Part shown: positions 3,248 to 52,684 of the stretch, piece by piece
Position numbering within the stretch: position 1 is the first letter of the stretch
Layout of the letters: each line of letters starts with the position of its first letter
Assembly (NCBI GenBank): GCA_947476405.1
Contig: CANJQG010000004.1
Location: forward strand, 12,085-76,084
Direction of reading: 5' to 3'
Source: Thiotrichales bacterium
GTDB lineage: Bacteria > Pseudomonadota > Gammaproteobacteria > Francisellales > CACEW01
DNA length: 64,000 bases
Notes under the pieces: model-generated
The model's database searches: none
Told to the model about the DNA's origin: nothing
The model's input: only the letters and a program-made list of their open reading frames with translations
Position numbers and translations under genes: made by a program

Positions 3248-4383
3248 TCCGCTTGTTTAAACGTATGAAGCGCAGTGGGGGAGATTCGTAAACGTTCCTG
3301 ACCCTTCCGAACCGTGGGATAATTCACCGCTTGCACATAAATATGATGCTCTGAAAACAAACGCTCCGTGATCGCCTGACAACGCAGCGCATCGCCAATT
3401 AAAATCGGGATTATTTGACTGGAGGAGTCTGTCATTGGCAAGCCTGCTTTTTTAAGACCTGATTTGAGATAGCAGACCAATTCAGCGAGATAACGCTGCA
3501 TTTCAGTATGCGTTTTAAGATAGTCCAAGACAAACAGACCGCTCGCACAAATATGGGGTGGCAAGGAAACGGTAAAAATAAAGCCATTTCCCATGAGGCG
3601 AATACTATCCACAATAGCCGCTGAGGCCGTGATATAGCCGCCTAAAAGACCAAACCCTTTGCCCAAAGTCCCCTGAACAATATCAACCTGAGACGATAGC
3701 CCTAATGCTTCAATCAATCCGCCTCCCTGAGGCCCATACACACCCAGTGCATGCACTTCATCCGCATAAGTCAGTGCGTTGTATTTTTTTGCCAAAGAAA
3801 CAATCTCTGCAATGGGGGCAAAATCACCACTCATAGAATAAACAGTTTCAAATACAATGATTTTAGGCTGATTAAGCGGAAAAGAAGCTAATTTTTTTTC
3901 TAAATCTTGAACATGATTATGTTCAAAAATAATGCGCTTCGCATGGCTTTCACGAATGCCTTCGATAATGGACATATGATTTTCAGCATCGGATACATAC
4001 ACTAAATCGGGTAGAATTTTACCCAGTGTTGAAAGAGTCGTTTGATTGGCAACATAGCCAGAAGTAAATAAAAGCGCGGCCTCCTGCTGGTGCAGTTCTG
4101 CGAGGCGGGCTTCAAGCTCCACATGTTTGAAATGGGTCCCCCCAATATTGCGCGTCCCTCCCGCACCCGTTCCATAGCGCTGAATACTAGCGCTCATGGC
4201 TTGTTTGATCTCTGGATTTTGAGTGAGGCCTAGATAATCGACTCCGCACCAGGAAATAATCTCCTTTCCTGCACAGGAAGTTTCAGGAAAGCGAGCATCA
4301 CGATCTAGAGGCCGAAAAATCCGATACCGATTTTCCGCCTTAATGGCATTCAAACTTTGAGCAAAATAGTCTGCATAATTCAT
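3187..4383 (-). CDS. hemA: 5-aminolevulinate synthase (ALAS, C4 haem pathway), PLP-dependent alpha-oxoamine synthase family
   Basis: ENRYRIFRPLDRDARFPE, GTGAGGTRNIGGT, SDAENHMSIIEGIR, VYSMSGDFAPI, ADEVHALGVYG, GTLGKGFG (PLP lysine) and VQAVNYPTVRKGQERLRISP match ALAS signatures rather than BioF/Kbl. The start at ATG 4383 (MNYADYF) aligns with ALAS N-termini. Alternative starts are 4392 and TTG 4419. Confidence 0.75.
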   Translation of the reverse strand: MNYADYFAQSLNAIKAENRYRIFRPLDRDARFPETSCAGKEIISWCGVDYLGLTQNPEIKQAMSASIQRYGTGAGGTRNIGGTHFKHVELEARLAELHQQEAALLFTSGYVANQTTLSTLGKILPDLVYVSDAENHMSIIEGIRESHAKRIIFEHNHVQDLEKKLASFPLNQPKIIVFETVYSMSGDFAPIAEIVSLAKKYNALTYADEVHALGVYGPQGGGLIEALGLSSQVDIVQGTLGKGFGLLGGYITASAAIVDSIRLMGNGFIFTVSLPPHICASGLFVLDYLKTHTEMQRYLAELVCYLKSGLKKAGLPMTDSSSQIIPILIGDALRCQAITERLFSEHHIYVQAVNYPTVRKGQERLRISPTALHTFKQADQLLDALTTVFCQEAVKPCV

Positions 4384-4452
4384 GCCTGGCATTATCCTGG
4401 ATATGCGAGGCAGGATCAAGTAAAATGAGTCAAATGCCGTGCTGGATCAACA

Positions 4453-4899
4453 ATGACGATGCCTGTTTTCCATGATGTACCGATTTCCTGCATTAATCAG
4501 GCAGCTGAAACCTATGCAATCCCTGCAGAATTGATTATGGCCATTATTTTTGTTGAAGGCGGACGCAACGGGATTGCAATGGCCAACAACAATGGCACCT
4601 TCGATTATGGGGTCATGCAAATTAATAGCACCTGGCTGGAACGCGCCAGACAGAAAGGCGCCAGCGCATATGACCTCCAATACGATGCCTGTCAAAATGT
4701 CATGATTGGCACTTGGATTCTCAGTCAAAATCTCCAAATGGAACCCAATCTCATTAAGGCTGTCGGCAATTATCATTCGCACACGCCCGCCCTCAATTAC
4801 AATTATGCCAAGCAGGTTTTATTTATTTATGGCAAAATTCGAAAAATTCTCGCACCCGGCGTTAGCAAAAACTGCGATAAACTTGGAAAAATATGTTAA
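4453..4899 (+). CDS. Lytic transglycosylase, SLT domain (IagB/VirB1-like), with no recognisable signal peptide
   Basis: AIIFVEGGRNGIAMANNNGTFDYGVMQINSTW is the catalytic Glu plus N.NG..DYG.MQIN motif of family-1 SLT enzymes. An in-frame TGA at 4426-4428 rules out a longer N-terminus. Confidence 0.7.
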   Translation: MTMPVFHDVPISCINQAAETYAIPAELIMAIIFVEGGRNGIAMANNNGTFDYGVMQINSTWLERARQKGASAYDLQYDACQNVMIGTWILSQNLQMEPNLIKAVGNYHSHTPALNYNYAKQVLFIYGKIRKILAPGVSKNCDKLGKIC

Positions 4900-6962
4900 T
4901 GCACCGTCTTCAACACATCATTGCGACACACGCTCAGGCTCTTTAGCATGGTTAATAAATGGATAATTTTAATTGAATCGAGAAAAGGCAAGCGATCTCC
5001 TGCTAAAAATCGTTGACGTAATTGATCTTGATAAGCCCTTAGGTCTTCAATCAGTGCGCTCAAACTCATGGCACTTTGATTAAAAGACAGCGCGCGCTTA
5101 GTCAATTCAATAATGAGAGGATCTTTCTCTCTCAAATTAATCGCCTGTAAAGATAAAACAATTCCCGCCAAAAGATGATAATCCCGATACCATAAAGTGA
5201 CGAGCGCCTGCATTCTTTTACCAAAAAGAGGAGCACGCCAATGAAATCCTGAAAACGATTTGATTTGTTGACGCAAAGCATTCAACTCGCTCCTTAAAAA
5301 CAAATGAGGCTGATCGATAGACTGAATCAGCAAGGATTGAATGACCGCCCGATACCAGTCCAACTGGGCTTGATAATGCTGCGCCACTTTTTTATCCGAA
5401 AACGGCCAAATCCAGCTAATGAAAATAAATAAAAATAAAGCGCCACCTAAGGCAATCAGCAATAACTGCACTGCATTTTTTGCACTTTCCAGTGGACCCA
5501 AGCCTTCCATAATATTTGTAAAAAATAAATAGGCGGAGAACAAGCCTGACAGATTAAGACGATCAGGCGCATACTTAATATAAGCCAAAATAAAACTAAA
5601 GCCCGCAACCGCAAGCAAATAGGGCAGAAGATGGGTAAAATTAAAGAGCATAAAGACGAGTGCAGCACCCGTCCCAATCAGACAACCTGTCACAATTTGT
5701 AAAATTCGGGCACGACTGACCGTTAAATCAAATTGGAGAGACAGTGCGGTCACCAGACTTAAAATGACAACCCCGCTCAAATCTAAGTGAATCGCAATAA
5801 AGGGGAGGAGCACAACTAACAAAGCTACTTTAAATGCATATTCCCAATAAATACGATCAAAAATAAAAAAATGACCCAACTCTGTTTTAAAGGGCAGCCG
5901 GGTGGGCTGCACACACATTTCCTGATTAAAATTCTGCATCAGAATCAAAAATTCCTCTTGCCGCACTAAAAACTGATTCCACTCCATAATCGCTTCTGCA
6001 GCAAAGTCAGCCGCATGATGTTCACGAAACAGGGCGGCTTCACGCATTAACTGGGAAAAATTTTCTTGCCATCCTAAAAATGAAGGGGAACGCCCCTGAA
6101 TCAATCCCTCAAAAGTCTCCGTAATGGCTTTTTGTAATGCATCAAGCGGGAGCGAAAAATGGCGAAAAATTTGATCTGCCCGATGATGATACTGCACATA
6201 TAAATTTAACATCATTTCCTGAGCGATAAATGCAATTTCCCCTAAAGTCCAACGATTTTTTTTTGGAATAAACCGCTGTAAAGCCATTTGTATTTCAGCC
6301 AACTGAAGCATCTCTGTCATTTTGACTTTGAAATGAGGGTCTTTCCGATTCAATCGATACAAATCAAAGCAGGCATTTTGAAGCGCCGAAAGTTTTTTGA
6401 AAAGTTCAATATTATTCGTATTCAAGCGGATGGCAGCGGACGGACTTTGAAATAAAAGCGTAATGAGCAATGCACATAAACTACCAATCGTGACTTCCAA
6501 ACCGCGATAATACGCAGTTTCAGTAACGATAGGTGAGGAAATTAATCCCGGGCTGCTAAACAAAACTAATAAAAAAGTAATGGGCCCATATAACCACACA
6601 AACGGAGCCTGACTTTTTGCTGAAAAATATAAACAAATCGTCAAGGCGATAATCGATATGCTCAATAATAAAGGCGTAGGTGTATTCAAAACCCCAAGCA
6701 AAACCCATGCAGAAGTGACCCCCAACAGCGTCGCTAAAATGCGCTCCAACGTATGGCGAATCGTTGCACCGCGAGAAACCTGCACCACTGCAAAAGCCGT
6801 CCACGCAGCCCAAGTAGGATTGTGAATTTTAAATAACCAAGCCATCCACAAAGCCAATAAAGCTGCAAGACTTGCTTTTAAGGAAAAGAGCGTGCGCTCA
6901 GACTTCCAGGACATCTGCTTTAAACCAGCTATCCAACTAGAAAATAAGGTCCACTGATGCAT
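4896..6962 (-). CDS. FUSC-family (fusaric-acid-resistance / YccS / AaeB-like) inner-membrane protein
   Basis: Two multi-TM blocks flank a central cytoplasmic helical region, about 690 aa, which is the typical FUSC architecture. The start is set at ATG 6962 (MHQWTLF...). The 56 codons upstream in the track ORF would overlap the divergent gene. Confidence 0.6.
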   Translation of the reverse strand: MHQWTLFSSWIAGLKQMSWKSERTLFSLKASLAALLALWMAWLFKIHNPTWAAWTAFAVVQVSRGATIRHTLERILATLLGVTSAWVLLGVLNTPTPLLLSISIIALTICLYFSAKSQAPFVWLYGPITFLLVLFSSPGLISSPIVTETAYYRGLEVTIGSLCALLITLLFQSPSAAIRLNTNNIELFKKLSALQNACFDLYRLNRKDPHFKVKMTEMLQLAEIQMALQRFIPKKNRWTLGEIAFIAQEMMLNLYVQYHHRADQIFRHFSLPLDALQKAITETFEGLIQGRSPSFLGWQENFSQLMREAALFREHHAADFAAEAIMEWNQFLVRQEEFLILMQNFNQEMCVQPTRLPFKTELGHFFIFDRIYWEYAFKVALLVVLLPFIAIHLDLSGVVILSLVTALSLQFDLTVSRARILQIVTGCLIGTGAALVFMLFNFTHLLPYLLAVAGFSFILAYIKYAPDRLNLSGLFSAYLFFTNIMEGLGPLESAKNAVQLLLIALGGALFLFIFISWIWPFSDKKVAQHYQAQLDWYRAVIQSLLIQSIDQPHLFLRSELNALRQQIKSFSGFHWRAPLFGKRMQALVTLWYRDYHLLAGIVLSLQAINLREKDPLIIELTKRALSFNQSAMSLSALIEDLRAYQDQLRQRFLAGDRLPFLDSIKIIHLLTMLKSLSVCRNDVLKTVH

Positions 6963-7105
6963 GCATCTCTCTTTAATAAAAATTTCATTCCACAAGCGTA
7001 TCAGAAAAACCGGCTGAGAGAGAAGAAGAGGAGAATACACAGCTTGAATTTGAAACACATTTCCGATTAAATGAACACATGATCTGAATCGGAGAATACA
7101 AAGGC

Positions 7106-8008
7106 GTGAAAGTATTAATTGCAGGGGCAACGGGCTTTATTGGAAAAGCGCTGGCACGTGCATTTATTTTGCGTGGGGATCAAGTGATTGTTTTAGGTCG
7201 CTCCAAAGCAAAAATGAAATTTGTATTTGAAGAACCCATCACACTTTGGACTTGGATCGACCTTGAAACGCATTCTGAGCCCATTGATCTCATTGTCAAT
7301 CTATCGGGTGAAAATATCGGCGGATGGTGGAGCAAAAAGAAAAAAGAAAAAATCCTAAACAGCCGCCTGGCTGCGATTAAAAGACTCATTGCCTATTGCA
7401 ATCGCCAAAAAGAAACTTCAGAAAAAAGCCCACGCCTCCTACAAGCAAGCGGTATCGGTATCTATGGCATACGCGGGGATCGTGTTTATGACGAAAACAG
7501 CCCCCTACCGGAAGACCCTGATTTTTTAACTGAAGTGGCCCGAAGTGTTGAAAATTCAGCCTCTGACGCTGCAAGTGACAAAGTTCCCCTCCTGATCATG
7601 CGTTTTGGCGTGGTCTTAAACGCCAATGGCGGAATGCTGGAACAACTCTTCCCCCTCTATAAATACGGTTTTGGCACTATTTTTGGCACCGGAAAACAGT
7701 TTTTAAGCTGGATCAGTCGCACCGATCTCATCAAAGCCATTCTCTTTCTCAGCGACCACCCGGATTTGAATGGATCCATCAATCTCGTCGCGAAGGAACC
7801 CATTACGCAGCGTGCTTTTTCAAAAGCCTATGCTAAGTACCTCAACCGCCCACTTTGGCTCCGTTTTCCAGAATTCATGGTTAAAATTCTGCTCGGTGAA
7901 ATGGGTGAAACTTTACTTCTAGGGAGTCAAAAAGTGATTCCAACACGTCTACTTGAAGCAGGCTTTGATTTTGAATATCCTAATCTCAATTATTATTTTT
8001 CAAAATGA
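7106..8008 (+). CDS. NAD-dependent epimerase-family protein, YfcH/TIGR01777-like (SDR with C-terminal DUF1731-like region)
   Basis: N-terminal Rossmann motif KVLIAGATGFIGKAL, length 300 aa, C-terminal ...PTRLLEAGFDFEYPNL typical of the YfcH family. GTG start. Confidence 0.65.
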   Translation: MKVLIAGATGFIGKALARAFILRGDQVIVLGRSKAKMKFVFEEPITLWTWIDLETHSEPIDLIVNLSGENIGGWWSKKKKEKILNSRLAAIKRLIAYCNRQKETSEKSPRLLQASGIGIYGIRGDRVYDENSPLPEDPDFLTEVARSVENSASDAASDKVPLLIMRFGVVLNANGGMLEQLFPLYKYGFGTIFGTGKQFLSWISRTDLIKAILFLSDHPDLNGSINLVAKEPITQRAFSKAYAKYLNRPLWLRFPEFMVKILLGEMGETLLLGSQKVIPTRLLEAGFDFEYPNLNYYFSK

Positions 8009-42394: not shown

Positions 42395-43165
42395 TTACAA
42401 AAAGTAGTTCAACTCACCCAGAATAATACTTGGAATCAACGTACCTGCATTGGCCGCATTATCGCCATGAAGTTTAACAGGAAAATAATAGTCATATTCA
42501 AAGCGAAATGAAAGCCTTGGTGTAAAAAAATACTCATCGCCCACCCCTAAAATAGGGTTAATTTGGTTCCAGAAATTGCTATGATTGCTCGAATTCGTTT
42601 GAGCATACAGTGGGATCGTTCGCGCATCAGGCGTATTGGGTAAAAAATTGAGATCAATTTCCACATTACTTTGTGTGGTGACATTCATATAGGCCGCTCC
42701 TGCCCGGGCAAATAAATCAAACTTTTGCGTAATGGGATAGTTAAATTTAGCGCTTAAATCAATCGCACTGGCATTAATGGTATTTTTAACATTTAAATTT
42801 TCGTTGAAATAGTGGTTCACAGGTGCGAAATTAGAAATACATTTTTCCAAGTCGCCCGAGGTGCAGATAAATTGATTGTTACTGCCGTTATTATGATAGG
42901 TTCCAATGTTGGTATACCCTAATTCTATACCCCAATGACGGGTGAATTGATATCCTAAATAAAGTCGCCCCCCTAATACCCCATGCTCTGCATCGGCAAT
43001 CGGGAATAATTCATAATCAGGCTTAAAATATTGAATCCCCACCCCAGCACCCGCACCCACATAAACTTTTGAAAAAAGGGTATCATCCGCTGAAAGAAAC
43101 AATGGAACAAAGATAAACATGAAAAAACTTAGGGCGCGAAACTTTAAAGTTGAACTAAAAAACAA
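42395..43165 (-). CDS. Outer-membrane beta-barrel protein (OmpA-like/opacity-type small porin family)
   Basis: Signal peptide (FFMFIFVPLFLSA/DD), alternating beta-strand pattern rich in Gly/Tyr/Asn, C-terminal aromatic-containing strand (GELNYFL). TTG start. Confidence 0.65.
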   Translation of the reverse strand: MFFSSTLKFRALSFFMFIFVPLFLSADDTLFSKVYVGAGAGVGIQYFKPDYELFPIADAEHGVLGGRLYLGYQFTRHWGIELGYTNIGTYHNNGSNNQFICTSGDLEKCISNFAPVNHYFNENLNVKNTINASAIDLSAKFNYPITQKFDLFARAGAAYMNVTTQSNVEIDLNFLPNTPDARTIPLYAQTNSSNHSNFWNQINPILGVGDEYFFTPRLSFRFEYDYYFPVKLHGDNAANAGTLIPSIILGELNYFL

Positions 43166-43234
43166 ATTTTCTTAAGATAGCATTTGAATACGAAGCATGA
43201 TATAACATTGGCAGGTCATCATCAATGTAAAACT

Positions 43235-44203
43235 ATGAACCAAAGCACTTTTATTTCAGGCTGGTATGCTATTTTGCCCTCGCATATTTTAAAAAATAAA
43301 CCAATGCCTTTAAAACGCTTTGGCATTGATTTGGTTTTATGGCGTCAAAACAATCATCAACTCTCTATTTTTCTAGATCGCTGTCCACATCGAGGCGCAA
43401 AACTGAGCTTGGGCAAAGTGCATGATGATCACATTCAATGTCCTTTTCATGGATTTCGATTTGACAGTCAAGGCCAATGTGCTTTTGCGCCAGAATTTAA
43501 CAAGCCGATTCCAGGTCTCCAAGCCCGTTGTTTTGAGGCAAAAGAAGCCTTTGACATGATTTGGATCTATTGGGGAGAAGGCGCGCCTCAGCCCTTTGAA
43601 TATCAAGCACTATCTGATATCCATACTCAATTTAAAACCTACAGCACTATTCAAAAAATATGGCATTCTCACATGACTTATTGCATTGAAAATCAGCTAG
43701 ATTACACTCATTTACGTTTTGTACATAAAAGTACGATTGGCAGAGGTTTCAAAATGCCAGAAAATCCAAAAGTGGTGACTGGCGATCAAAAAATCAGTAT
43801 TTATTTTAACAACCAAGATGTCCCTGCAACCACCTTTTTATTCACTAACGCCTGGATTTTAAATATCAGCCAGAAAATGAAGCTGGTATTGTATTTTTGC
43901 CCAATTGATGCGACGCAGACACAACTCTACTTGTATAGTTACCGCCAGTTTTTAAGCCAACCAATCATTAAAAAAATAGTAGATCCGCTGATCAATTTAT
44001 CAAATCGCATTATTTTAAAACAGGATCAGCATGTTGTTGCATCACAGGGGACGTTGCCCTCCTATCTTGCAGAAGAGGATAGGCTGATGCGTCATGATCA
44101 GGCTATTCGCGATTTTCGCCAGATTTGGATTGAGAAGCTAATAAATGAACGCATTGAGCCGGATATGCAAAATGAATATCATGCGCAATTTTTACGGCAA
44201 TGA
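43235..44203 (+). CDS. Rieske [2Fe-2S] non-haem-iron oxygenase (PaO/KshA-like alpha subunit)
   Basis: Rieske motif CPHRGAKLSLG-x15-CPFHGFRF, and mononuclear iron motif NQLDYTHLRFVH. Start at ATG 43235; the track ORF starts at TTG 43184. Confidence 0.8.
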   Translation: MNQSTFISGWYAILPSHILKNKPMPLKRFGIDLVLWRQNNHQLSIFLDRCPHRGAKLSLGKVHDDHIQCPFHGFRFDSQGQCAFAPEFNKPIPGLQARCFEAKEAFDMIWIYWGEGAPQPFEYQALSDIHTQFKTYSTIQKIWHSHMTYCIENQLDYTHLRFVHKSTIGRGFKMPENPKVVTGDQKISIYFNNQDVPATTFLFTNAWILNISQKMKLVLYFCPIDATQTQLYLYSYRQFLSQPIIKKIVDPLINLSNRIILKQDQHVVASQGTLPSYLAEEDRLMRHDQAIRDFRQIWIEKLINERIEPDMQNEYHAQFLRQ

Positions 44204-44966
44204 TCCAATCTTGGGTAATCAAATCAATGATTTTTTTCCGGCTGTTTGGATAATAAAAAAAAGTCGACTCTAGGCGAATCAAAGAGCCATCAGATTCATG
44301 AGGAGAAAGAAATACTTCAGGCAACACCTGGAGATGACTTTTATTATTTTTTTTGACCTTTAACTTAGCGTAAATTTCCTGTGTATGTTTGCAAATAATT
44401 TCATGCAGAATTTTTTTTGCCTGAACGGCATCACTTTCGACAGTGATATAAGTCGAAAAATAAAAGCTTAGATGCTCACTTAGTTCAGAATGGTTGATGA
44501 GCTCATGAGTAAAAATAAAATGATTGGGCACTTTAAGATAACCATGCTTTGTATTGGCTTTAGAAAGCAGCGTGAATTCTTGCCAGCCCGTTGAAATAAT
44601 CTCTCCTGAATGTCCTTTAATAGAAATATGATCTCCAATTTTGAAAAGATTTTTACTTTTAATCAATAGCTTGGCACTCATATTTAAAATGAGCTCTTTA
44701 TGAGTCACCACTAATGCAGCACCCATTAAAGAGGCTAAGGCTGTAAAAATACGGAGCGTTTCAAACCAAATTTCCCCCACAATATAGACACTCAAAAAAA
44801 TCGATACGTAGGCGATACGGCCAGTCCATACTTGTCTATAATTTTCATTTTTAATTATTTTATGTAAAAAAATACGCATCATTCCATAAGCTAAAGCCAT
44901 CAGCATTAAGACGACAGCGCTACCCATTAAATTATTGAGATTATTATTAACCCAGGCTAAGATCAT
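44103..44966 (-). CDS. Mechanosensitive ion channel family protein (MscS-like)
   Basis: Three N-terminal TM segments, then FKIGDHISIKGHSGEIISTGWQEFTLL (MscS beta-domain motif). Starts 2 nt after the upstream gene's stop. Confidence 0.7.
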   Translation of the reverse strand: MILAWVNNNLNNLMGSAVVLMLMALAYGMMRIFLHKIIKNENYRQVWTGRIAYVSIFLSVYIVGEIWFETLRIFTALASLMGAALVVTHKELILNMSAKLLIKSKNLFKIGDHISIKGHSGEIISTGWQEFTLLSKANTKHGYLKVPNHFIFTHELINHSELSEHLSFYFSTYITVESDAVQAKKILHEIICKHTQEIYAKLKVKKNNKSHLQVLPEVFLSPHESDGSLIRLESTFFYYPNSRKKIIDLITQDWIIAVKIAHDIHFAYPAQCVHLLASQSKSGENRE

Positions 44967-44968
44967 TT

Positions 44969-45469
44969 TTATCCCCGCTTCATTTTTGAAAAATGAAACA
45001 AACTCACAATACTCAGACTAATCGCTAAAATGCTTAACGAAAAATATAATAAATCAATGCTATGATCATAAGTCATTTCAATTGCAAATTTAAAATACTC
45101 AATGAGCAAGGCAAGCACAATGGTTTTACTTAGGATATCCTTTAATTGATCTAGGCTCTTAATGCTTAAAACCGAATTTTTTGAAATTCCCATTGATTGC
45201 TCATCATTTAAAAAGAGACTATATATCCCATTGCTAAAAATATAAAATAAAAATGCAATTAAATACTGATCAATTGAAAAAATGGCCATCGCAATCGCTG
45301 ATTTTGTTAGAACATAGTCAAAATGGACCGCCCAAATTGCGGGCAATGCAATTATGGCTTGAATCAGCGTCATTGTTGCCATAATCAGCATGAAGAAAAA
45401 GCCAAGCAAGCCTGTAATGCAAGGGATATAAATCAATTTTTTTGATATTTTTAGAATTTTATAAAACAT
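44969..45469 (-). CDS. Small 4-TM membrane protein, YqhA/UPF0114-like
   Basis: 166 aa. Topology and the segment SLDQLKDILSKTIVLALLIEYFKFAI resemble E. coli YqhA ([23 protein letters not shown]). Assignment is tentative. Confidence 0.45.
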   Translation of the reverse strand: MFYKILKISKKLIYIPCITGLLGFFFMLIMATMTLIQAIIALPAIWAVHFDYVLTKSAIAMAIFSIDQYLIAFLFYIFSNGIYSLFLNDEQSMGISKNSVLSIKSLDQLKDILSKTIVLALLIEYFKFAIEMTYDHSIDLLYFSLSILAISLSIVSLFHFSKMKRG

Positions 45470-45484
45470 TTTTTTCTCCTATTA

Positions 45485-46318
45485 TCATGGATTACAGTAC
45501 TCACAATATTGAAGCGGCGCTTGGGTCAGACCATCCAGGCGCTTTGATTTTTCAACGTATTCGCAGGATACGCATTGTTTTAATCGAAACTGGTAGAGTG
45601 TGCTAGGGGCCTCACAGCATTCGCACAAGAGCTTGCCTGTTGTCGCCAATTTTCCAAATCCTGGACTCCTGCATTGCGGGCAGTGCTGCAGGATTCGCTG
45701 TGCCAATTTTTCTGCAGCCGTTGCAATGACGGTCATGCGTGATGGGTTGAAACACGCACGCATATCGGCTTCTAAGCGTATTTGCTGTGACTGTTTAAAT
45801 GCTTGTTCTATTGCAGTGTTTAAGGAAAGGGCGTCTGTAATGCCTTTTTGAATTGATCCGCTTTCTAATGCCCTGACGATTAAGCCATGGCTAGGAAACG
45901 CTACCTGTTTTAAAAAGGCTGCATAATCATCACCAGCGTTGAGATCGAACTGTGCATAATTGGTCTCTGTAGAGATCACGCTTTCAATGATTTCAATACC
46001 GTGTTTTAGATCAATGAGGCCGATCAATTCAATATCTGCAGGAATCATAAAGAAATCAGGATGCGGGCCAAAACTACCCTCACTGGCAATGGCATAGTCA
46101 TAGCCCGCTTTTTGTGCCGCATGTGTGGCTTTCGCAATCAAAGTGGCGAGTGGATTTTGCAGACGCGGAACTTCTCCTGCAAACGTACCAAATTGATCGC
46201 TGTCAAAATCTTTGGCCACGTCGATATCACAGCCAATTAAACGTTTGAAAATCGGCTGGATAACGCGCTCTTTGTGGTGTTTCGTGGCGACTAGGATTCG
46301 GGTATTGCGATAGCGCAT
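45485..46318 (-). CDS. Uncharacterised soluble protein with a C-terminal double zinc ribbon (four CxxC pairs)
   Basis: 277-aa ORF whose start overlaps the dabA stop by 28 nt. The C-terminus has CPQC-x16-CECC and CVSC-x18-CEYC. The N-terminal region (EGSFGPHPDFF...) is not assignable by me. Confidence 0.7.
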   Translation of the reverse strand: MRYRNTRILVATKHHKERVIQPIFKRLIGCDIDVAKDFDSDQFGTFAGEVPRLQNPLATLIAKATHAAQKAGYDYAIASEGSFGPHPDFFMIPADIELIGLIDLKHGIEIIESVISTETNYAQFDLNAGDDYAAFLKQVAFPSHGLIVRALESGSIQKGITDALSLNTAIEQAFKQSQQIRLEADMRACFNPSRMTVIATAAEKLAQRILQHCPQCRSPGFGKLATTGKLLCECCEAPSTLYQFRLKQCVSCEYVEKSKRLDGLTQAPLQYCEYCNP

Positions 46319-48615
46319 GTGGGCTGCTCCGGTTCAATCACAGTAAGAGACAGCCAGTGGCCATGAATCAATTGTTGTAACAGTGGCTGGCGTTGAATAA
46401 TATCAATAACACGCTGCTGAGGGGCATAGACCACAATCAATAAACGCTGAGGCTGATGAAGTAGTTGATTGCCAAAGCGGACACTTTGCTCGGGCAGGCC
46501 GATTTTTAAGTCGCTGTCATTGCCTTCGACCACGCCAATTCTACCGACGATGCTGTGAAGGGTTTTATTGCCTGCGCCAAAAAAGTCTGGGTTAACGGTC
46601 GAAAAATAATATTGCGCGTTAATCCAATGCGCAACCACTGCTGGAGCACATAAAATCGACTCCAATATGCTTCCCGTTGCATCGCTTTTGGGATCATAGC
46701 AATGTAAAAAGGAGCGGCGCTCTAAGTCAATACCCCGAGTAAATAAACGTGGACCAATGATCAACGCGGCATTATTGGCCAGACCTAACTCTGGAATCAT
46801 CTCAGCCCAATCAAAGGGTTTGCGCCAAAGCTTATTGCGGTTGGGCCAACTGATTAAGCGTTCTTGACGAAGGTCGCTGCTAGCCTGATGCAGGTCTTGT
46901 TGAAAAGTATGAAAGGTGGCATTGCTTGGAGTTGGGGTTGGAGCAAGCCAGCGGATTTCATCTGTGGTCGTGTTATGACATGCGGGGATAAATTGCGTCT
47001 CTTCTGGGATATCAATCCCTTTATTGCGCAAGGCGTTTCGAATCTCAGGATCATTCAGGCTTTGTGCGGCCATTGTAGCATTCGCCATGCCGGAGTTTCC
47101 GCCGCAAGCGCCACAGTTCAGTGCGCTGGCAAATGGATTGTTGTCTGACTGTGATTCATGGCCACAAATCACGACCCATTGGGCAAAGTTTTGCGTTAAA
47201 CCTATCGTTTGCAATAATGATGCGGCACTATTCACTGCTTGTTCAAATGGAATATGGGACTGATACTGGGGAAGTGTTTTCTGCTTATGATGGCGCAGAG
47301 GAATCCACTCCTTGATCCATAAGGCAGCCGCGGGAAATAGTGACAGCATTTCAACTAAGCCAAAACAACTGAGCGGATGATTTTTGCTATTTTCCAATAC
47401 CGTTTTGGCCGCCTGTATCGCTTGCCCTAAGCGTGTTTGTGGTCGGGTATTTTGGCTCACCACATCGCTTGGGCTGACCAACGCGGGGCATTGTAGGCGA
47501 CAAGCGCTCGTCTCATCCAGTTTAAAGATAAAGCCAAAAAAACCGGCAATCCCAAAAGTGTGATATTGCGGATGCTGCTCAAGTTTTCTCCGTAATCCTT
47601 CAGAACGGGCATCCATGCAAAAAATCAATTGAACGGCAGGGCACGTATCGGTTTTAGGAGGGGATGGCTTCAAAATTTTTTCGAATAAATCCTGTTGATA
47701 GGCTTGCTCGTAAGCAGTTTGCCAGGTCAATAAAATATCCACATGATCTAGGGGTGGAATAAGAGCACTTCTGCTATTCGCGCGGTACCATTGCTGCCAA
47801 ATCAAACTTTGTGAGGCGGTGCTTGATATCGCGATCACATCGTAGCTTGAATGGTTTGCCAGAATATATTCATAGCATAGCCACATTCCTACCAGGGTGA
47901 TAAGATCCGCATCGCCTTCCAGCCAGGGGTTTTCGGGATGGCGCTGTAGCCATTGAATCAATCCCGCATAACCCTTGAGTTCTAATAAAATACGGCTGAA
48001 ATAAACAGGCAGCATTGTTAAGGGAATGCCTATTTTTTGCAACAGATTTTCAATGGTCACTTCGATCGCGTGTTGTGGTTGAAGTAATGCTTTTAGTTTG
48101 GGTTGCTCAAGCACAATAAAATGGCACCAAAAGGCCCAGAGTGATTGCTTGGGCTTGGGTAGCCAATTGGCCTCTCCTCGGTCAAAATAAGGGGTCATCC
48201 ATTGTAGACATTGTTGCCTGACCCAGTTTTTGTGCTTGCCAGAGGGCAAATGATCCAACTGCTCGCTTAGCAAAATCAAAGTGTGCACGGGAGCGATTTC
48301 CTCGCAGAGCTTTTGCTGCAAGGCAAGATCCAACCAAAAATCGTTGTGCAGATAATCTGAGCCTAGGTTTTTTTGAATGGCTTTTTGGAGATGATCTGGG
48401 CTGATTGTGCCCGCTTTAAAAGCATCCATATAAAAACGGAGTGACATGGTGCCGGATTGACCATGAAGGCTATAGAGTTTCGACAAGACCGTTTTGATGC
48501 TGTGATGTTTAGCCTCCCAGAGCGGATTAGTCGCGATAAAGCTATTGAGTGGCCAGTATTCGCTAATCCATTCGCTGGCTTCGATGATTGCTTGTTTAAT
48601 GATATCTGGATTCAT
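46291..48615 (-). CDS. dabA: DabA (DUF2309/YbcC family), beta-carbonic-anhydrase-like subunit of the DAB inorganic-carbon uptake complex
   Basis: About 775 aa. FC(345)MD(347)ARSEGLRR and ICGH(498)ES...LNC(513)GACGGNSG match the Cys/Asp/His/Cys zinc-ligand pattern reported for DabA. The ATGA start overlaps the dabB stop at 48612-48615. Confidence 0.85.
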   Translation of the reverse strand: MNPDIIKQAIIEASEWISEYWPLNSFIATNPLWEAKHHSIKTVLSKLYSLHGQSGTMSLRFYMDAFKAGTISPDHLQKAIQKNLGSDYLHNDFWLDLALQQKLCEEIAPVHTLILLSEQLDHLPSGKHKNWVRQQCLQWMTPYFDRGEANWLPKPKQSLWAFWCHFIVLEQPKLKALLQPQHAIEVTIENLLQKIGIPLTMLPVYFSRILLELKGYAGLIQWLQRHPENPWLEGDADLITLVGMWLCYEYILANHSSYDVIAISSTASQSLIWQQWYRANSRSALIPPLDHVDILLTWQTAYEQAYQQDLFEKILKPSPPKTDTCPAVQLIFCMDARSEGLRRKLEQHPQYHTFGIAGFFGFIFKLDETSACRLQCPALVSPSDVVSQNTRPQTRLGQAIQAAKTVLENSKNHPLSCFGLVEMLSLFPAAALWIKEWIPLRHHKQKTLPQYQSHIPFEQAVNSAASLLQTIGLTQNFAQWVVICGHESQSDNNPFASALNCGACGGNSGMANATMAAQSLNDPEIRNALRNKGIDIPEETQFIPACHNTTTDEIRWLAPTPTPSNATFHTFQQDLHQASSDLRQERLISWPNRNKLWRKPFDWAEMIPELGLANNAALIIGPRLFTRGIDLERRSFLHCYDPKSDATGSILESILCAPAVVAHWINAQYYFSTVNPDFFGAGNKTLHSIVGRIGVVEGNDSDLKIGLPEQSVRFGNQLLHQPQRLLIVVYAPQQRVIDIIQRQPLLQQLIHGHWLSLTVIEPEQPTCAIAIPES

Positions 48616-50093
48616 AACCATCCCCGGATTAATAATAATAAAGCGACCCATGCCATTAATCCATGAGTCAACCTAGGTGATATTGGAATGAGAATAGCAT
48701 GCTGGAGTCGTTGATAAAACGCGTTAATATAGCCTTTTTGTAAGCTGATTCGGTAGGCCCATTGACCTATTGCGCTTTGCATGAGCTTATTTTTTGGAAT
48801 CAACCACCCTAGCCACTGCCAAGCAAACAGTAATGAGATGATTAACCCCTGAAAGGACGTGCTAAGCGTGATATGGGCAGAACGCTCAGGGAAATACAGA
48901 CAGAGTAAATGCGTCCACCAACAATAAAGATTGACGATTAAAAACAGTCCAATCGCACTGAGAAGTAAAGTCTGCCAGGAGAGTCGTTGTTGCAACACGC
49001 TATGGCAAGCTTGTGCAAGTGTGATGGCGCTAAATCCCCAGAATAAAACAGGCGGTAAGCTGAGTGACCACGATAAATGGCAGCGCCATAATATCAACAA
49101 AGCCACGCTGGTACTGATGAAGGCTGTGCATAATCGCCGGATAGTGCTTGGTTTGATATAGTGGGTTATGACCCAGGATCGATTACCATTATTCAAAAAC
49201 AATCCGGCTTTCAATAAACCATGCGTCATCATATGTAAAAGCGGAGCGCTAAACACGCCCAGGCCAAATTGAAACACCATAAATCCCATCTGTCCCATGG
49301 TTGAATAGGCTAGTTTTTGTTTGACATGGCTGCATGTGAGCATACAAAAACTGCCAAATATGGCGCTGATCAAACCAATCAAAAGCAATGCCAGCATGAC
49401 AGGTGCATGTTGGTAAAATAGCGGTGCCAGTCTTAGCAATAAAAATCCTCCTGCATTAATCACCCCTGCATGCATCAAGGCTGAAACGGGTGTGGGGGTT
49501 TCTAACGTATCTGGCAACCAAACATGAAATGGAAATAGCGCTGATTTGGTCATGATCGCAATCATCAGCAGTACAGCAATCCACCCCGAGTGTTGCGCAT
49601 GAATAATCACGCTGTAATCTGAACTTCCCCAATATTGATAAGATAAAATTACCGCACTTAAAAAACAGATATCGCCGATGCGATTGATCAGAAATTTCTT
49701 CAAAGCCGCTTCGCGTGCCCTCGGTCTGTGGGCATAATGATTGAGCAGCCAATACAAGGTCAAACCAATACATTGCCAGGCAATAAAGGCCGTGAGTAGA
49801 TTGCTTGAGAGGATGAGTAATGTGACACTGGTGCTGACCCAGCACAATCGTGCTAAAAATAAGCGTCTTTTAGGATCTGCAGTCATATAGCGTCGGGCAT
49901 ATCCAAAAATAATAAGACTAATAAAGCTCACTAAAATCAGTATCACAATCGATAGCAGGGGAATCAGGGTCGGCCGGATTAGGCAGCTGATCGCGATGAT
50001 CCATTGCGCAGCAAGCAAGAATTGACTGAGGCGAGAATGATAAAAGCAAGAAATACCCGCAAGCAAGGGCAAGCACAACAGAAGTAGCGTCAT
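48612..50093 (-). CDS. dabB: DabB, NuoL/MrpD-like proton-conducting membrane subunit of the DAB complex
   Basis: 493-aa polytopic protein with the complex I antiporter-subunit motif (FPFHVWLPDTLETPTPVSALMHAGVINAGG). Immediately upstream of, and coupled to, dabA. Confidence 0.8.
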   Translation of the reverse strand: MTLLLLCLPLLAGISCFYHSRLSQFLLAAQWIIAISCLIRPTLIPLLSIVILILVSFISLIIFGYARRYMTADPKRRLFLARLCWVSTSVTLLILSSNLLTAFIAWQCIGLTLYWLLNHYAHRPRAREAALKKFLINRIGDICFLSAVILSYQYWGSSDYSVIIHAQHSGWIAVLLMIAIMTKSALFPFHVWLPDTLETPTPVSALMHAGVINAGGFLLLRLAPLFYQHAPVMLALLLIGLISAIFGSFCMLTCSHVKQKLAYSTMGQMGFMVFQFGLGVFSAPLLHMMTHGLLKAGLFLNNGNRSWVITHYIKPSTIRRLCTAFISTSVALLILWRCHLSWSLSLPPVLFWGFSAITLAQACHSVLQQRLSWQTLLLSAIGLFLIVNLYCWWTHLLCLYFPERSAHITLSTSFQGLIISLLFAWQWLGWLIPKNKLMQSAIGQWAYRISLQKGYINAFYQRLQHAILIPISPRLTHGLMAWVALLLLIRGWL

Positions 50094-50125
50094 TCATATT
50101 ATCCTGGGTTAAGATTGTGTTGATT

Positions 50126-50140
50126 ATAAAGCCGTGTTAT
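50126..50140. promoter_or_regulatory. Candidate LysR-type T-N11-A box (ATAA-N7-TTAT dyad) in the dabB / lysR divergent region
   Basis: ATAAAGCCGTGTTAT, read directly. It lies between divergent start codons at 50093 and 50190. Confidence 0.3.
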
Positions 50141-50189
50141 CATTTTTAAAAATTTATAATTATTGGCTTAACCATCACGAGAAAATGAT

Positions 50190-51104
50190 ATGAGACTCAG
50201 CCTACACCAACTTACTGTATTTCGTGCTATTGCTGATCAAGGTGGCATCACAGCTGCGGCACAGAAGCTACATATGACTCAACCTGCCGTGTCGAATATT
50301 CTCAAGCAACTACACCACTATTATCAGCAACCCCTGGTTGAGGTCATCGCCAAAAAGGTATATTTAACCGAGGCAGGCAAGGTCTTGTATCAGCATGCCG
50401 TTCAAGTGGATCAAATATTGCATAAAGCAGCCACAGAAGTAAAATCGCTGGGGGGTGGCGTACGGGGTAACTTACGATTAGCCGTGGTGTCGACCGCTAA
50501 ATATTTTGTGCCACGTTTATTAGGCGCTTTTAAACGCTGCTATCCCGAGGTGAATATCACCCTGGAAGTCTTAAATCGTGAACAGGTGATTGAGCAGCTT
50601 ACGCAAAACCAGAATGATTTTGTCATTATGAGTCAGCCCCCCTTAAACATTCCCATTGAGGTTGAGCCTTTTTATGAAGATCAATTGGTGCTTTCCTGCG
50701 CCACGGATCACCCCTTATTCAGTCAAAAAAAAATTGCGTTTTCAGTCCTGAGTAACGAGCCCTGGTTAATGCGTGAAAAAGGCTCTGGCACGCGCATGGT
50801 GATGCTGAAATGGATGCATCATCATCAGATTATACCCAATAGTATCATGGAAATTGGCAACAACGAATCCATCAAGCAGTTGGTGATGGCGGGGATGGGC
50901 ATTTCTTTGCTCTCAAAACAAAGCATTGAAATCGAATTAGCCGCTGGATTAATTGCGATATTGCCCGTTAAAGGCTTGCCCTTGAAGCACGAGTGGTATA
51001 TGGTGCGGCATGTCGATAAACAGCCCTCTAATTTGGTGCGCACTTTTTATGAGTTTGTGCAACAACATCCTGACTTGGGACATTTTTTAACGCTAAAAGA
51101 GTGA
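50190..51104 (+). CDS. LysR-family transcriptional regulator, CbbR/CmpR-like
   Basis: The N-terminal HTH LHQLTVFRAIADQGGITAAAQKLHMTQPAVSNILKQLH resembles CbbR-type regulators. 304 aa. Divergent from dabBA. Confidence 0.85.
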   Translation: MRLSLHQLTVFRAIADQGGITAAAQKLHMTQPAVSNILKQLHHYYQQPLVEVIAKKVYLTEAGKVLYQHAVQVDQILHKAATEVKSLGGGVRGNLRLAVVSTAKYFVPRLLGAFKRCYPEVNITLEVLNREQVIEQLTQNQNDFVIMSQPPLNIPIEVEPFYEDQLVLSCATDHPLFSQKKIAFSVLSNEPWLMREKGSGTRMVMLKWMHHHQIIPNSIMEIGNNESIKQLVMAGMGISLLSKQSIEIELAAGLIAILPVKGLPLKHEWYMVRHVDKQPSNLVRTFYEFVQQHPDLGHFLTLKE

Positions 51105-51255
51105 GCTAAATCAATACTAAAGTTCAATCATATGCTATGCTATGTTCGATTTTTTATACTTATTTATTGTTTTATTTTTTAAAAAAATCAATTGCATTTT
51201 ATCAAAAAAAAATTATAATAGGAGCGCTATACTACAACCGATCAGAAGGACACTT

Positions 51256-51549
51256 ATGCTATCCGTCATCAAAAAAAACCCGATTCTAACCACTTGCCTA
51301 ATCATAGCACTCTTATTAGGCTTTATTTTTGCAACCACAAAACCCGGCAATAACTCCAACAATCTAGATAAAGAGGAACCGAAGTACATCTCAGCTGGGC
51401 TTTTCACAATCGCCCTCATGGGCCTGTTTGCGTTATGCCGTAAGTATTGTAAGCGGGACGAGGAAGAATTACACCAACCACTTCTCCCCATGAGAGTAGC
51501 AATGTTAGTGCGCCCTGCCCCCGTTATCGCTCCGCCACTCACCCCATAA
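51256..51549 (+). CDS. Hypothetical small membrane protein (two TM segments, Pro-rich tail)
   Basis: MLSVIKKNPILTTCLIIALLLGFIF... Start at the first ATG, 51256; the track ORF extension from 51142 looks spurious. An antisense ORF of similar size also exists. Confidence 0.35.
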   Translation: MLSVIKKNPILTTCLIIALLLGFIFATTKPGNNSNNLDKEEPKYISAGLFTIALMGLFALCRKYCKRDEEELHQPLLPMRVAMLVRPAPVIAPPLTP

Positions 51550-51652
51550 AAAATTATTTATATCAATGATCGTATTCAATCTAACTTGCATCTTATTATT
51601 TATTTTGAGACAATGACATCCTGCCATTTTATTAGGATGTTGTCATCACAGC

Positions 51653-52684
51653 ATGAAAACTCAAGACCTTCGCATTAAAAGCATCAAGCCCTTGATCTCA
51701 CCGGCATTACTGATTGAAGAATTGCCCCTATCTGATCCACTCGCAATTCAGATTCATCAGGATCGTCAGGCTGTGGCGGATATTATTCAGGGAAAAGATT
51801 CCCGCCTTTTGGTTATTGTAGGTCCCTGCTCTATTCATGACCCTCAATCAGCTTTGGAATATGCGGATCGCCTGGCTGTTTTAGCTAAAAAACTGCAAAA
51901 AAAACTAATGATCGTCATGCGCGTTTATTTTGAAAAACCACGCACGACCGTGGGCTGGAAAGGATTGATTAATGATCCGTATTTGAATGACAGCTATCAA
52001 ATCAATCAAGGCTTGCGAATTGCACGCCATCTCTTATTGGATATTGCTCATAAAGGCCTACCCATTGCAGTGGAATTTTTGGACACCATCTCCCCTCAAT
52101 ATGTGGCGGATTTAGTCAGCTGGGGAGCGATCGGCGCACGAACAACAGAAAGTCAAATTCATCGCGAACTGGCCTCGGGTTTATCCATGCCGATTGGCTT
52201 CAAAAATGCGACTTCCGGTGATATTGATATTGCTTTAGACGCGGTGAAAGCAGCCAGTCATCCTCATAGCTTTTTGGGCGTGACCAGTCAAGGCTTATCA
52301 GCCATTGTGATGACCGCAGGCAACTTAGATACACATATTGTCTTACGTGGCGGAAAAAGTGGCCCCAATTATGACTTAGCGTCATTACAAGCAATGATCA
52401 AAGCACAGGAAGCCCGTCAGATCAAAACAGGTTTGATTGTCGATGCAAGCCATGCAAACAGCCAAAAAGATTATAAGCGGCAGATCGAGGTGCTAGAATC
52501 TGTATTGCAAACCAAACAAAGTCATCCCGAATTACCCATTGTAGGGGTCATGATTGAAAGTCACCTTATAGAAGGACGTCAAGATTTAAAGCCAGGCCAG
52601 ACTTTAGAATATGGTCAAAGTATCACAGACGCCTGTTTAGGCTGGGAGCAAACCGAGGCTATTTTGAATAAACTAGGAGCTTGA
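51653..52684 (+). CDS. 3-deoxy-7-phosphoheptulonate (DAHP) synthase, class I
   Basis: IVGPCSIHD, FEKPRTTVGWKGLINDP, WGAIGARTTESQIHRELASGLS, DASHANS. The isozyme (Phe/Tyr/Trp-sensitive) cannot be decided from sequence. Confidence 0.92.
   Translation: MKTQDLRIKSIKPLISPALLIEELPLSDPLAIQIHQDRQAVADIIQGKDSRLLVIVGPCSIHDPQSALEYADRLAVLAKKLQKKLMIVMRVYFEKPRTTVGWKGLINDPYLNDSYQINQGLRIARHLLLDIAHKGLPIAVEFLDTISPQYVADLVSWGAIGARTTESQIHRELASGLSMPIGFKNATSGDIDIALDAVKAASHPHSFLGVTSQGLSAIVMTAGNLDTHIVLRGGKSGPNYDLASLQAMIKAQEARQIKTGLIVDASHANSQKDYKRQIEVLESVLQTKQSHPELPIVGVMIESHLIEGRQDLKPGQTLEYGQSITDACLGWEQTEAILNKLGA

Follow-up and report, generated by a model that had tools for sequence, protein, structure and literature searches.

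The 64-kb stretch of contig CANJQG010000004.1 from a Thiotrichales bacterium (hereafter the window, meaning this whole stretch) carried at 44103-51104 a gene for a LysR-family regulator and, divergent from it, five closely packed genes: dabB and dabA, encoding the two proteins of a DAB-type pump supplying inorganic carbon (Ci), a gene for a soluble protein of the family DUF6671, and genes for a YqhA-like membrane protein and a small MscS-like protein (Table 1). These genes probably represent a LysR-controlled DAB2 operon in which the DUF6671 protein is a conserved, cytosolic partner of Ci supply and not a subunit of the pump, and in which the last two genes are riders of one clade. The pump itself is of an already known type; the DUF6671 protein is the new conserved partner.

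Organization of the locus and the DAB2-type pump

Re-reading of the sequence reproduced all gene coordinates of the original prediction, together with its ATGA overlap, its spacings of -28, +15 and +2 nucleotides (nt) and its 96-nt gap between dabB and the LysR gene. The stop codon of dabB and the start codon of dabA overlapped in ATGA (gttATGAatcc), a start that gives a protein of 774 amino acids (aa), whereas the longest open reading frame (ORF), starting at 48651, gives 786 aa. The coding regions of dabA and the DUF6671 gene overlapped by 28 nt, and the start of the latter was backed by N-terminal alignment with 20 homologues (MRYRN.. versus MFYKN../MHYQN..). Spacers of 15 nt and 2 nt separated the DUF6671, YqhA-like and MscS-like genes, and a terminator scan located no terminator-like site between the five operon genes; thus, transcription from the same promoter probably extends through the last two genes. 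The promoter scan returned 20 promoter-like sites versus 16.6 expected, which is the chance level, so that it neither proves nor refutes co-transcription, and an Rfam scan of 43000-52000 gave nothing relevant. The guanine-plus-cytosine (GC) content was 44-47% in the LysR, dabB, dabA and DUF6671 genes versus 31-35% in the last two.

Table 1. Features of the locus, with positions in the window
Feature	Position	Strand	Domain or element
LysR-family regulator	50190..51104	+	HTH_1 + LysR_substrate
Divergent control region, 96 nt	50094..50189	.	promoter-like site + ATAA-N7-TTAT dyad
dabB, 493 aa, proton-conducting membrane subunit, NuoL/MrpA-like	48612..50093	-	PF00361
dabA, 774 aa from ATG of ATGA overlap, beta-carbonic-anhydrase-like cytosolic subunit	46291..48615	-	PF10070
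DUF6671 gene, 277 aa, soluble product	45485..46318	-	PF20376
UPF0114/YqhA-family membrane protein gene	44969..45469	-	PF03350
Small MscS-type channel-like protein gene, 287 aa	44103..44966	-	PF00924 beta-domain

In profile hidden Markov model searches the two pump proteins matched the families to which they had first been assigned, DabA matching PF10070 (DUF2309) over profile positions 3-747 of 747 (665.4 bits, cut-off 25; E 1.6e-199) and DabB matching PF00361 (E 1.2e-44). When DabA was aligned to the solved DabA2 (9rd0_A, E 8e-95), all four zinc ligands were in register, within the motif pairs FCMDARSE and FCIDVRSE, and GH..CGACGG and GH..CGACAG. These ligands (C333, D335, H486 and C501 in the 774-aa numbering) were invariant in 11 DabA sequences of related loci and correspond to residues 345, 347, 498 and 513 of the 786-aa ORF, exactly the positions predicted for C345/D347 in FCMDARSE and H498/C513 in CGHES...NCGACGG. 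The best solved-structure match of DabB was DabB2 (9rd0_B; E 4e-49, residues 8-464), not a complex I subunit. Genes nuoL, nuoM and nuoN of complex I were located at 25937-30880, 20 kb from dabB, and NuoL, with 30% identity, was the sole other strong DabB-like match in the window; DabB is thus a paralogue in its own right, and its gene is no displaced member of the nuo set. No DabC-like membrane gene was present at the locus, which indicates a pair of the DAB2 type. Judged from these sequence comparisons, dabB-dabA is a genuine DAB2-type pair, an ordinary two-gene CO2-uptake pump, with its function assigned through homology to solved and assayed DABs. DabB would form the NuoL-like proton conduit and DabA would hold the buried beta-carbonic-anhydrase-like zinc site, and together they would let the proton-motive force drive one-way hydration of CO2 into the cytosolic bicarbonate pool, the activity of a proton-motive-force-driven one-way CO2 hydratase (PMC13144422; bioRxiv 10.1101/476713).

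The pair is similar to DAB2 of Halothiobacillus neapolitanus, solved as 9rd0, 9rd8 and 9rd9 (PMC13144422; bioRxiv 10.1101/476713), in its two-gene dabB-dabA unit, in the C/D/H/C zinc ligands of DabA and in its NuoL-like DabB; there, too, a LysR regulator has been connected with the carbon-concentrating phenotype. The proteins of the window are shorter, with 774 aa versus 827 (870 in the deposited chain) for DabA and 493 versus 551 for DabB, neither RuBisCO nor a carboxysome is seen in the window, and, unlike the described DAB2 operon, a third gene with a soluble product, that of DUF6671, overlaps dabA. RuBisCO was unlisted in the Pfam tables, whose genes covered about two-thirds of the window, no search aimed at it having been made, and tblastn detected no Ci-theme gene elsewhere in the window, whether for carbonic anhydrase, SbtA or another protein. 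As no RuBisCO is shown by the window, the bicarbonate would feed biosynthetic carboxylations, not the Calvin cycle. The original prediction had considered a DAB module in an apparently host-associated heterotroph worth attention; such modules have already been published, including that of Legionella pneumophila (bioRxiv 10.1101/476713; PMC6689103). It had also described DAB complexes as two-component, which no longer holds for DAB1 (Thermocrinis albus, H. neapolitanus), a DabABC heterotrimer whose third required gene product, the membrane protein DabC, is similar to half of NuoM and belongs to no Pfam family (bioRxiv 10.64898/2026.05.01.722082).

The best NCBIfam match of the LysR-family regulator was CbbR (NF045990), with 260 bits versus a cut-off of 450 bits, and the earlier designation "CbbR-like" is therefore kept in the sense of a best match but not of an equivalog. 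In the control region, a promoter-like site for dabB, TTTAAA-16-TATAAT (50150..50123, minus strand), had 10 of 12 matches, and the ATAA-N7-TTAT dyad previously noticed in this gap was located at 50126-50140, overlapping the best -10 hexamer. At least one perfect 4-N7-4 dyad arose in 48% of shuffles of the 96-nt spacer, so that the dyad alone is not above chance; its half-sites were kept, as ATAG-N7-TTAT, in two relatives (L087, 82% identity; L088, 70%). The dyad is compatible with a putative LysR site and is not proof of one. The regulator would control expression of the DAB2-type Ci-uptake operon.

The DUF6671 protein and its genomic neighbourhoods

The product of the third gene, described in the original prediction as a 277-aa double zinc-ribbon unknown, matched the Pfam family DUF6671 (PF20376) with 194 bits versus a cut-off of 23.8; it carries an alpha/beta domain besides its two Cys4 ribbons. 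In an AlphaFold2 model (21 homologues; predicted local distance difference test score, pLDDT, 89.5), an N-terminal alpha/beta domain of about 170 residues was followed by a C-terminal double Cys4 zinc ribbon. The best match of this model in the PDB, as searched with Foldseek, was YjjX (1u14; E 7e-5, probability 1.0), and HAM1, Maf and ITPA were among the top 30 matches. The predicted N-terminal domain thus resembles the ITPase/Maf/HAM1/YjjX nucleoside-triphosphatase fold, which suggests nucleotide binding or hydrolysis. Sequence and profile searches were unhelpful, a permissive Pfam scan (E up to 10) matching DUF6671 members to zinc-ribbon families only and a PDB profile search giving just weak L37e-type zinc-ribbon matches (E at least 0.016), so that it is Foldseek that provides the ITPase-like assignment. 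The likeness to YjjX of Escherichia coli (1u5w) consists of the predicted N-terminal fold and of a motif after the first strand, ATKHxKE, which resembles TTNPAK; unlike YjjX, the DUF6671 protein possesses an extra inserted subdomain and the double zinc ribbon, and unlike the ITPase, Maf, HAM1 and YjjX proteins generally it has no significant sequence or profile similarity to the group. The inserted subdomain was missing from the DUF6671 protein of one relative (L173), a short form of 218 aa without the segment matching window residues ~121-184.

Among 80 DUF6671 sequences from several phyla, 49 positions were at least 97% conserved, and all 49 were present in the window protein. They include H14, K16, D41, R52, K63, EGSFGPHP80-87, E97, D103, H144, K158, DMRA185-188, R194 and all eight cysteines; as read from the alignment, such a pattern is that of an enzyme with two additional, structural Cys4 sites. 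The protein showed no hydrophobic segment and is thus soluble, and no match to the P-II domain (PF00543) was observed. Two candidate identities were considered: a carbonic anhydrase gained no support, since no such fold occurred in the top 50 Foldseek matches and the eight cysteines form two CxxC-pair ribbons in the model, and DabC, as a membrane protein (bioRxiv 10.64898/2026.05.01.722082), was rejected.

Gene neighbourhoods were compared in two scans, for each of which 80 loci were taken by highest score from a set of at least 585 to 595 relatives. The DUF6671-centred scan, with the DUF6671 alignment as query against one genome per GTDB species (185,579 species genomes), gave at least 600 matched stretches with at least 595 confirmed relatives, of which the best 80 were used; the dabA-centred set comprised 80 metagenome loci. 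In 17 of the 80 DUF6671-centred loci dabA was located directly upstream of DUF6671 on the same strand. These dabB-dabA-DUF6671 loci came from Legionella species, Coxiellaceae, a metagenome-assembled genome (MAG) labelled Thiotrichales, the alphaproteobacterium Aestuariivirga and an unclassified bacterium. Reciprocally, DUF6671 was near dabA in 15 of the 80 dabA-centred loci, in co-directional, convergent or upstream arrangement, and the existence of three arrangements argues for selection for proximity over inheritance of one operon. The original prediction had suggested that the whole downstream trio may be accessory to or co-regulated with DAB; genomic co-occurrence with dabA, found in both directions for DUF6671, bears this out for that gene but not for the YqhA-like and MscS-like genes (0 of 160 loci). 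Of the 80 DUF6671-centred loci, 27 had a LysR gene with at least 30% identity to that of the window no more than 3 kb from DUF6671, and in 26 of these it was on the opposite strand; a LysR gene was near dabA in 41 of the 80 dabA-centred loci, mostly upstream of dabB and on the opposite strand.

Besides DabA (17 loci), the genes within 3 kb of DUF6671 in its 80 loci encoded dihydroorotase (PyrC, 28), isocitrate dehydrogenase (IDH, 26), SbtA (22) and Sua5 (20) and, more rarely, P-II (9), BioD (4) and PurEK (2), all on the DUF6671 strand. At least one of them was present in 68 of the 80 loci; the P-II gene, where present, was a separate gene before DUF6671. The identities of dihydroorotase (two different classes), TsaC/Sua5, BioD and NADP-IDH were above curated NCBIfam cut-offs. 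A Pfam census of two flanking genes per side showed the same families and, in addition, Pro_CA, a biotin-carboxylase carboxyltransferase, AceK and bestrophin, and a beta-carbonic anhydrase gene was directly upstream of DUF6671 in two loci (L019 and L058). The metal centre of dihydroorotase contains a carbamylated lysine, and the products of isocitrate dehydrogenase are CO2 and 2-oxoglutarate, the classical effector of P-II and LysR proteins.

Several individual arrangements were observed. In a Coxiellaceae MAG (L008, 10847-14049), dabB, dabA, DUF6671, Sua5 and a 727-aa SulP-beta-carbonic-anhydrase fusion formed one string with two Ci-supply systems. Dihydroorotase genes were translationally coupled to DUF6671 in Methylocystis rosea (L022, 8125-10825; TIGR00856, with BioD before it) and, with the other class (NF006688), in Bacteroidota such as Algoriphagus (L052, 8640-10834). 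The Bacteroidota cluster consisted of a LysR gene divergent from that of isocitrate dehydrogenase, a small ORF, DUF6671, Sua5, dihydroorotase and SbtA; the conserved ORF of about 100 aa directly upstream of DUF6671 (L038, 9712-10038; L073, 9712-10014; and ~20 others) had no Pfam or NCBIfam match.

In L. pneumophila (L090) the order was LysR, divergent from dabB-dabA-PII-DUF6671-purE-purK. LysR, dabB, dabA and DUF6671 thus follow the same order as in the window, and the DUF6671 proteins are 51-52% identical; in L. pneumophila, a P-II gene separates dabA from DUF6671, purEK takes the downstream place that the YqhA-like and MscS-like genes have in the window, and the LysR protein is of a different subfamily (just 22-24% identical). 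The DabA homologue of L. pneumophila has already been noted in the literature. In a full-text literature search no paper mentioned DUF6671, and no paper was found that treats DUF2309 together with Legionella; the conserved association of DUF6671 with Ci genes appears new to the literature, as far as searched.

The LysR/DUF6671 frame and the two downstream genes

Comparison of the dabBA stretch of the window (46291-50093) with that of L088, a MAG labelled Thiotrichales (3874-7315), showed 63% identity for LysR and 70% for DUF6671 versus 41% for DabB and 42% for DabA. The far better conservation of the two outer genes suggests exchange of the dabBA pair between them, and these comparisons suggest a conserved LysR...DUF6671 frame with exchangeable cargo, which may be dabBA of different lineages or IDH. 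In L088, a TerC gene was located between LysR and dabB, and Sua5 after LysR.

The YqhA-like protein matched PF03350 (UPF0114) with 53 bits (cut-off 23.1) and had approximately four hydrophobic segments; its gene had an AGGAG Shine-Dalgarno sequence and a GC content of 30.7%, compared with 44-47% in the upstream genes. The MscS-like protein matched the beta-domain of PF00924 at residues 92-160 (30.3 bits, cut-off 20.2), with hydrophobic segments 16-34 and 70-88 ahead of it, and is a putative channel. No close relative of either protein was encoded in the 80 DUF6671-centred or the 80 dabA-centred loci (tblastn, E 1e-5), and phmmer detected three sporadic, weak and unrelated MscS-domain ORFs in the DUF6671-centred loci. 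Both genes were missing from L088, despite its 70%-identical DUF6671, whereas an 87%-identical relative retained all five genes.

The MscS-like protein had just 4 detectable relatives among 5.8 billion proteins, and its gene belonged to a LysR/DUF6671/Sua5 cluster in all three lineages of known context. In an orthologous frame of one relative (L173, 70-2113, and a 26-kb contig), the order was LysR, divergent from IDH, DUF6671, UPF0114 and MscS-like genes, followed by a convergent Rieske gene and OmpA, so that IDH took the place of dabBA; identities to the window were 52% for MscS-like, 32% for DUF6671, 70% for UPF0114 and 66% for Rieske proteins. Another relative was found in the order LysR(59%)-Sua5-MscS-like. 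UPF0114 homologues with 79% and 52% identity occurred in unrelated contexts, next to glnA and ftsQ. A reading from tblastn that the two genes never recur was dropped, since the frame was recovered from L173 and L174 once searches were made with protein sequences; a recent horizontal arrival, suggested by low GC, was weakened because the orthologous pair of L173 is equally AT-rich (36% GC), and low GC may be intrinsic to these genes. Recurring in the LysR/DUF6671 frame even without DAB, the two genes appear attached to the frame and not to DAB. On the homologues retrieved, they are riders limited to one narrow gammaproteobacterial clade.

A precedent is provided by the heterotroph Staphylococcus aureus, in which the DAB homologue MpsAB(C) provides bicarbonate when CO2 is at the level of air and the downstream third gene, mpsC, is lineage-specific and dispensable (PMC6689103). 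mpsC is reported beside mpsAB only in staphylococci (PMC6689103), whereas DUF6671 stands beside Ci genes across phyla; this contrast between the two genes is one of distribution. Tight spacing alone misled the five-gene reading, and the last two genes should not enter DAB models.

The MscS-like gene converges with a Rieske/VanA_C oxygenase gene (plus strand, 43184-44203), the coding overlap being 101 nt (44103-44203). Convergent overlaps of these two genes were also observed in relatives, with 47 nt in the 87%-identical relative and 68 nt in L173.

Proposed role of DUF6671 and competing explanations

DUF6671, translationally coupled to dabA, would be a conserved partner of bacterial Ci supply and would have its place in the cytosol, where the bicarbonate pool is consumed or regulated. 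From its predicted fold, it may be a nucleotide-binding or nucleotide-hydrolysing enzyme or regulator and would not be a pump subunit. The main argument against a subunit is that DUF6671 is common to three unrelated Ci-supply systems, DAB, SbtA and beta-carbonic anhydrase; the neighbours that use CO2 or bicarbonate in ATP-dependent reactions (TsaC/Sua5, PurK/PurE and BioD) would place it where bicarbonate is used in nucleotide-dependent reactions. In cyanobacteria, SbtA-SbtB and P-II-type regulation of bicarbonate transporters offers a parallel, in which the gene of a Ci transporter has beside it that of a small, soluble partner that binds nucleotides. Unlike P-II/SbtB, the DUF6671 protein has no P-II domain, is about 2.5 times larger and combines a predicted ITPase-like fold with zinc ribbons; in Legionella it coexists with a P-II gene lying between dabA and DUF6671, and thus is no replacement of P-II.

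It is unlikely that DUF6671 is a physical third subunit or a direct allosteric regulator of DAB, in the manner of DabC in DAB1 or of P-II/SbtB for SbtA. The 28-nt translational overlap with dabA, gaps of 4 to 90 nt in many relatives, dabA directly upstream in 17 of 80 loci and the fact that zinc ribbons often mediate protein contacts would all fit such a role. However, where a genome shows no DAB at the locus, DUF6671 accompanies SbtA or beta-carbonic anhydrase; where dabA is present, the two genes are sometimes convergent or separated by several kb, and in Legionella the P-II gene intervenes. DabC, moreover, is a membrane protein (bioRxiv 10.64898/2026.05.01.722082), whereas DUF6671 lacks a hydrophobic segment, belongs to a Pfam family, occurs also with SbtA and carbonic anhydrase and is followed in the window by a fourth gene, that of UPF0114; in E. 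coli, DAB2 of H. neapolitanus is functional as a two-protein system (bioRxiv 10.1101/476713). More improbable still is a single dedicated Ci module of all five genes, in which the YqhA-like and MscS-like proteins balance ions or bicarbonate for the pump. It would account for the 15- and 2-nt spacers without a terminator-like site, for the same five genes in the 87%-identical relative, for the MscS-like gene in a LysR/DUF6671/Sua5 cluster in three of three lineages of known context, and for the low frequency of other anion-channel genes near DUF6671 (bestrophin in 2 loci, an unrelated MscS-domain ORF in L052). It conflicts with the lack of relatives of both genes in the 160 comparison loci and in L088, with L173, where the pair follows IDH-DUF6671 and no DAB is present, with the UPF0114 homologues next to glnA and ftsQ, with the GC step from 46% to 31% at the DUF6671/UPF0114 junction and with the precedent of the dispensable, lineage-specific mpsC (PMC6689103). 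Chance juxtaposition, with none of the three downstream genes related to DAB, is the least credible of all: tight packing of unrelated genes is common in operons of reduced or AT-rich genomes, and the promoter and terminator scans were uninformative (20 sites versus 16.6 expected), but the reciprocal enrichment of DUF6671 and dabA extends across phyla and gene arrangements and includes 15 of 80 dabA loci, where the at least 595 relatives in 185,579 species genomes give no firm genome frequency for comparison.

A serious rival, if a doubtful one, is that DUF6671 is a housekeeping enzyme of nucleotide metabolism, for example for the clean-up of non-canonical or modified nucleotides, with PyrC, PurEK and TsaC/Sua5 as its true partners and with Ci-uptake genes brought nearby by the bicarbonate need of these pathways or by operon inheritance. 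The predicted ITPase/Maf/YjjX-like fold, the commonest immediate neighbours (PyrC of two different classes in 28 of 80 loci and Sua5 in 20 of 80) and the adjacent purE and purK of Legionella agree with this. Against it, LysR and dabBA are the only conserved partners in the window and in at least 8 other loci, no Sua5, PyrC or PurEK gene occurs within the 64-kb window, three unrelated Ci-supply systems recur beside DUF6671, and IDH, BioD and P-II are not encoded by nucleotide-pathway genes.

Several points weigh against the preferred explanation of the locus. Functional claims beyond homology are guilt by association, and the 80 top-scoring loci of each scan are a non-random sample. Much of the signal is given by one inherited Bacteroidota super-operon (IDH-small ORF-DUF6671-Sua5-PyrC-SbtA), and as these loci are phylogenetically non-independent, the counts overstate independent events. 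PyrC and IDH are only loosely CO2-related, so that the common theme could be nucleotide metabolism. With regard to the fold, the template modelling score (TM-score) between DUF6671, a predicted model as query, and YjjX was 0.36 (query-normalised) or 0.55 (target-normalised), comparison with E. coli YjjX by hhalign was not significant (E 0.12 over 19 columns), and none of 21 DUF6671 members matched the ITPase, Maf or Ham1 families of Pfam, even with E values up to 10. As for the riders, the cluster context of the MscS-like gene may leave room for a local functional link.

A broader proposal is offered tentatively: DUF6671 could be a widespread, formerly unrecognised component of Ci homeostasis, kept beside whichever Ci-supply device a genome has and regulating or using bicarbonate for ATP-dependent carboxylations and carbamoylations. 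Such reactions include those of PurK, TsaC and BioD and carbamoyl-phosphate-dependent pyrimidine synthesis, and the protein would be kept by heterotrophs and perhaps by some autotrophs. A recurrent soluble partner of DAB, SbtA and carbonic anhydrase, and of several CO2- or bicarbonate-using enzymes, would point to a new step in the sensing or spending of cytosolic bicarbonate, and a domain of unknown function thereby gains a concrete and cheaply testable hypothesis. DAB pumps are under structural study and are being engineered into crops and industrial microbes, and what they do in heterotrophs and in pathogens such as Legionella, Vibrio, Bacillus and Staphylococcus is a question raised by the discovery papers. 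In the window, two tandem genes for eukaryote-type Ser/Thr protein kinases (PF00069; 22681-23808 and 23805-24989, plus strand) were the only hint of a Legionellales-like, host-associated lifestyle.

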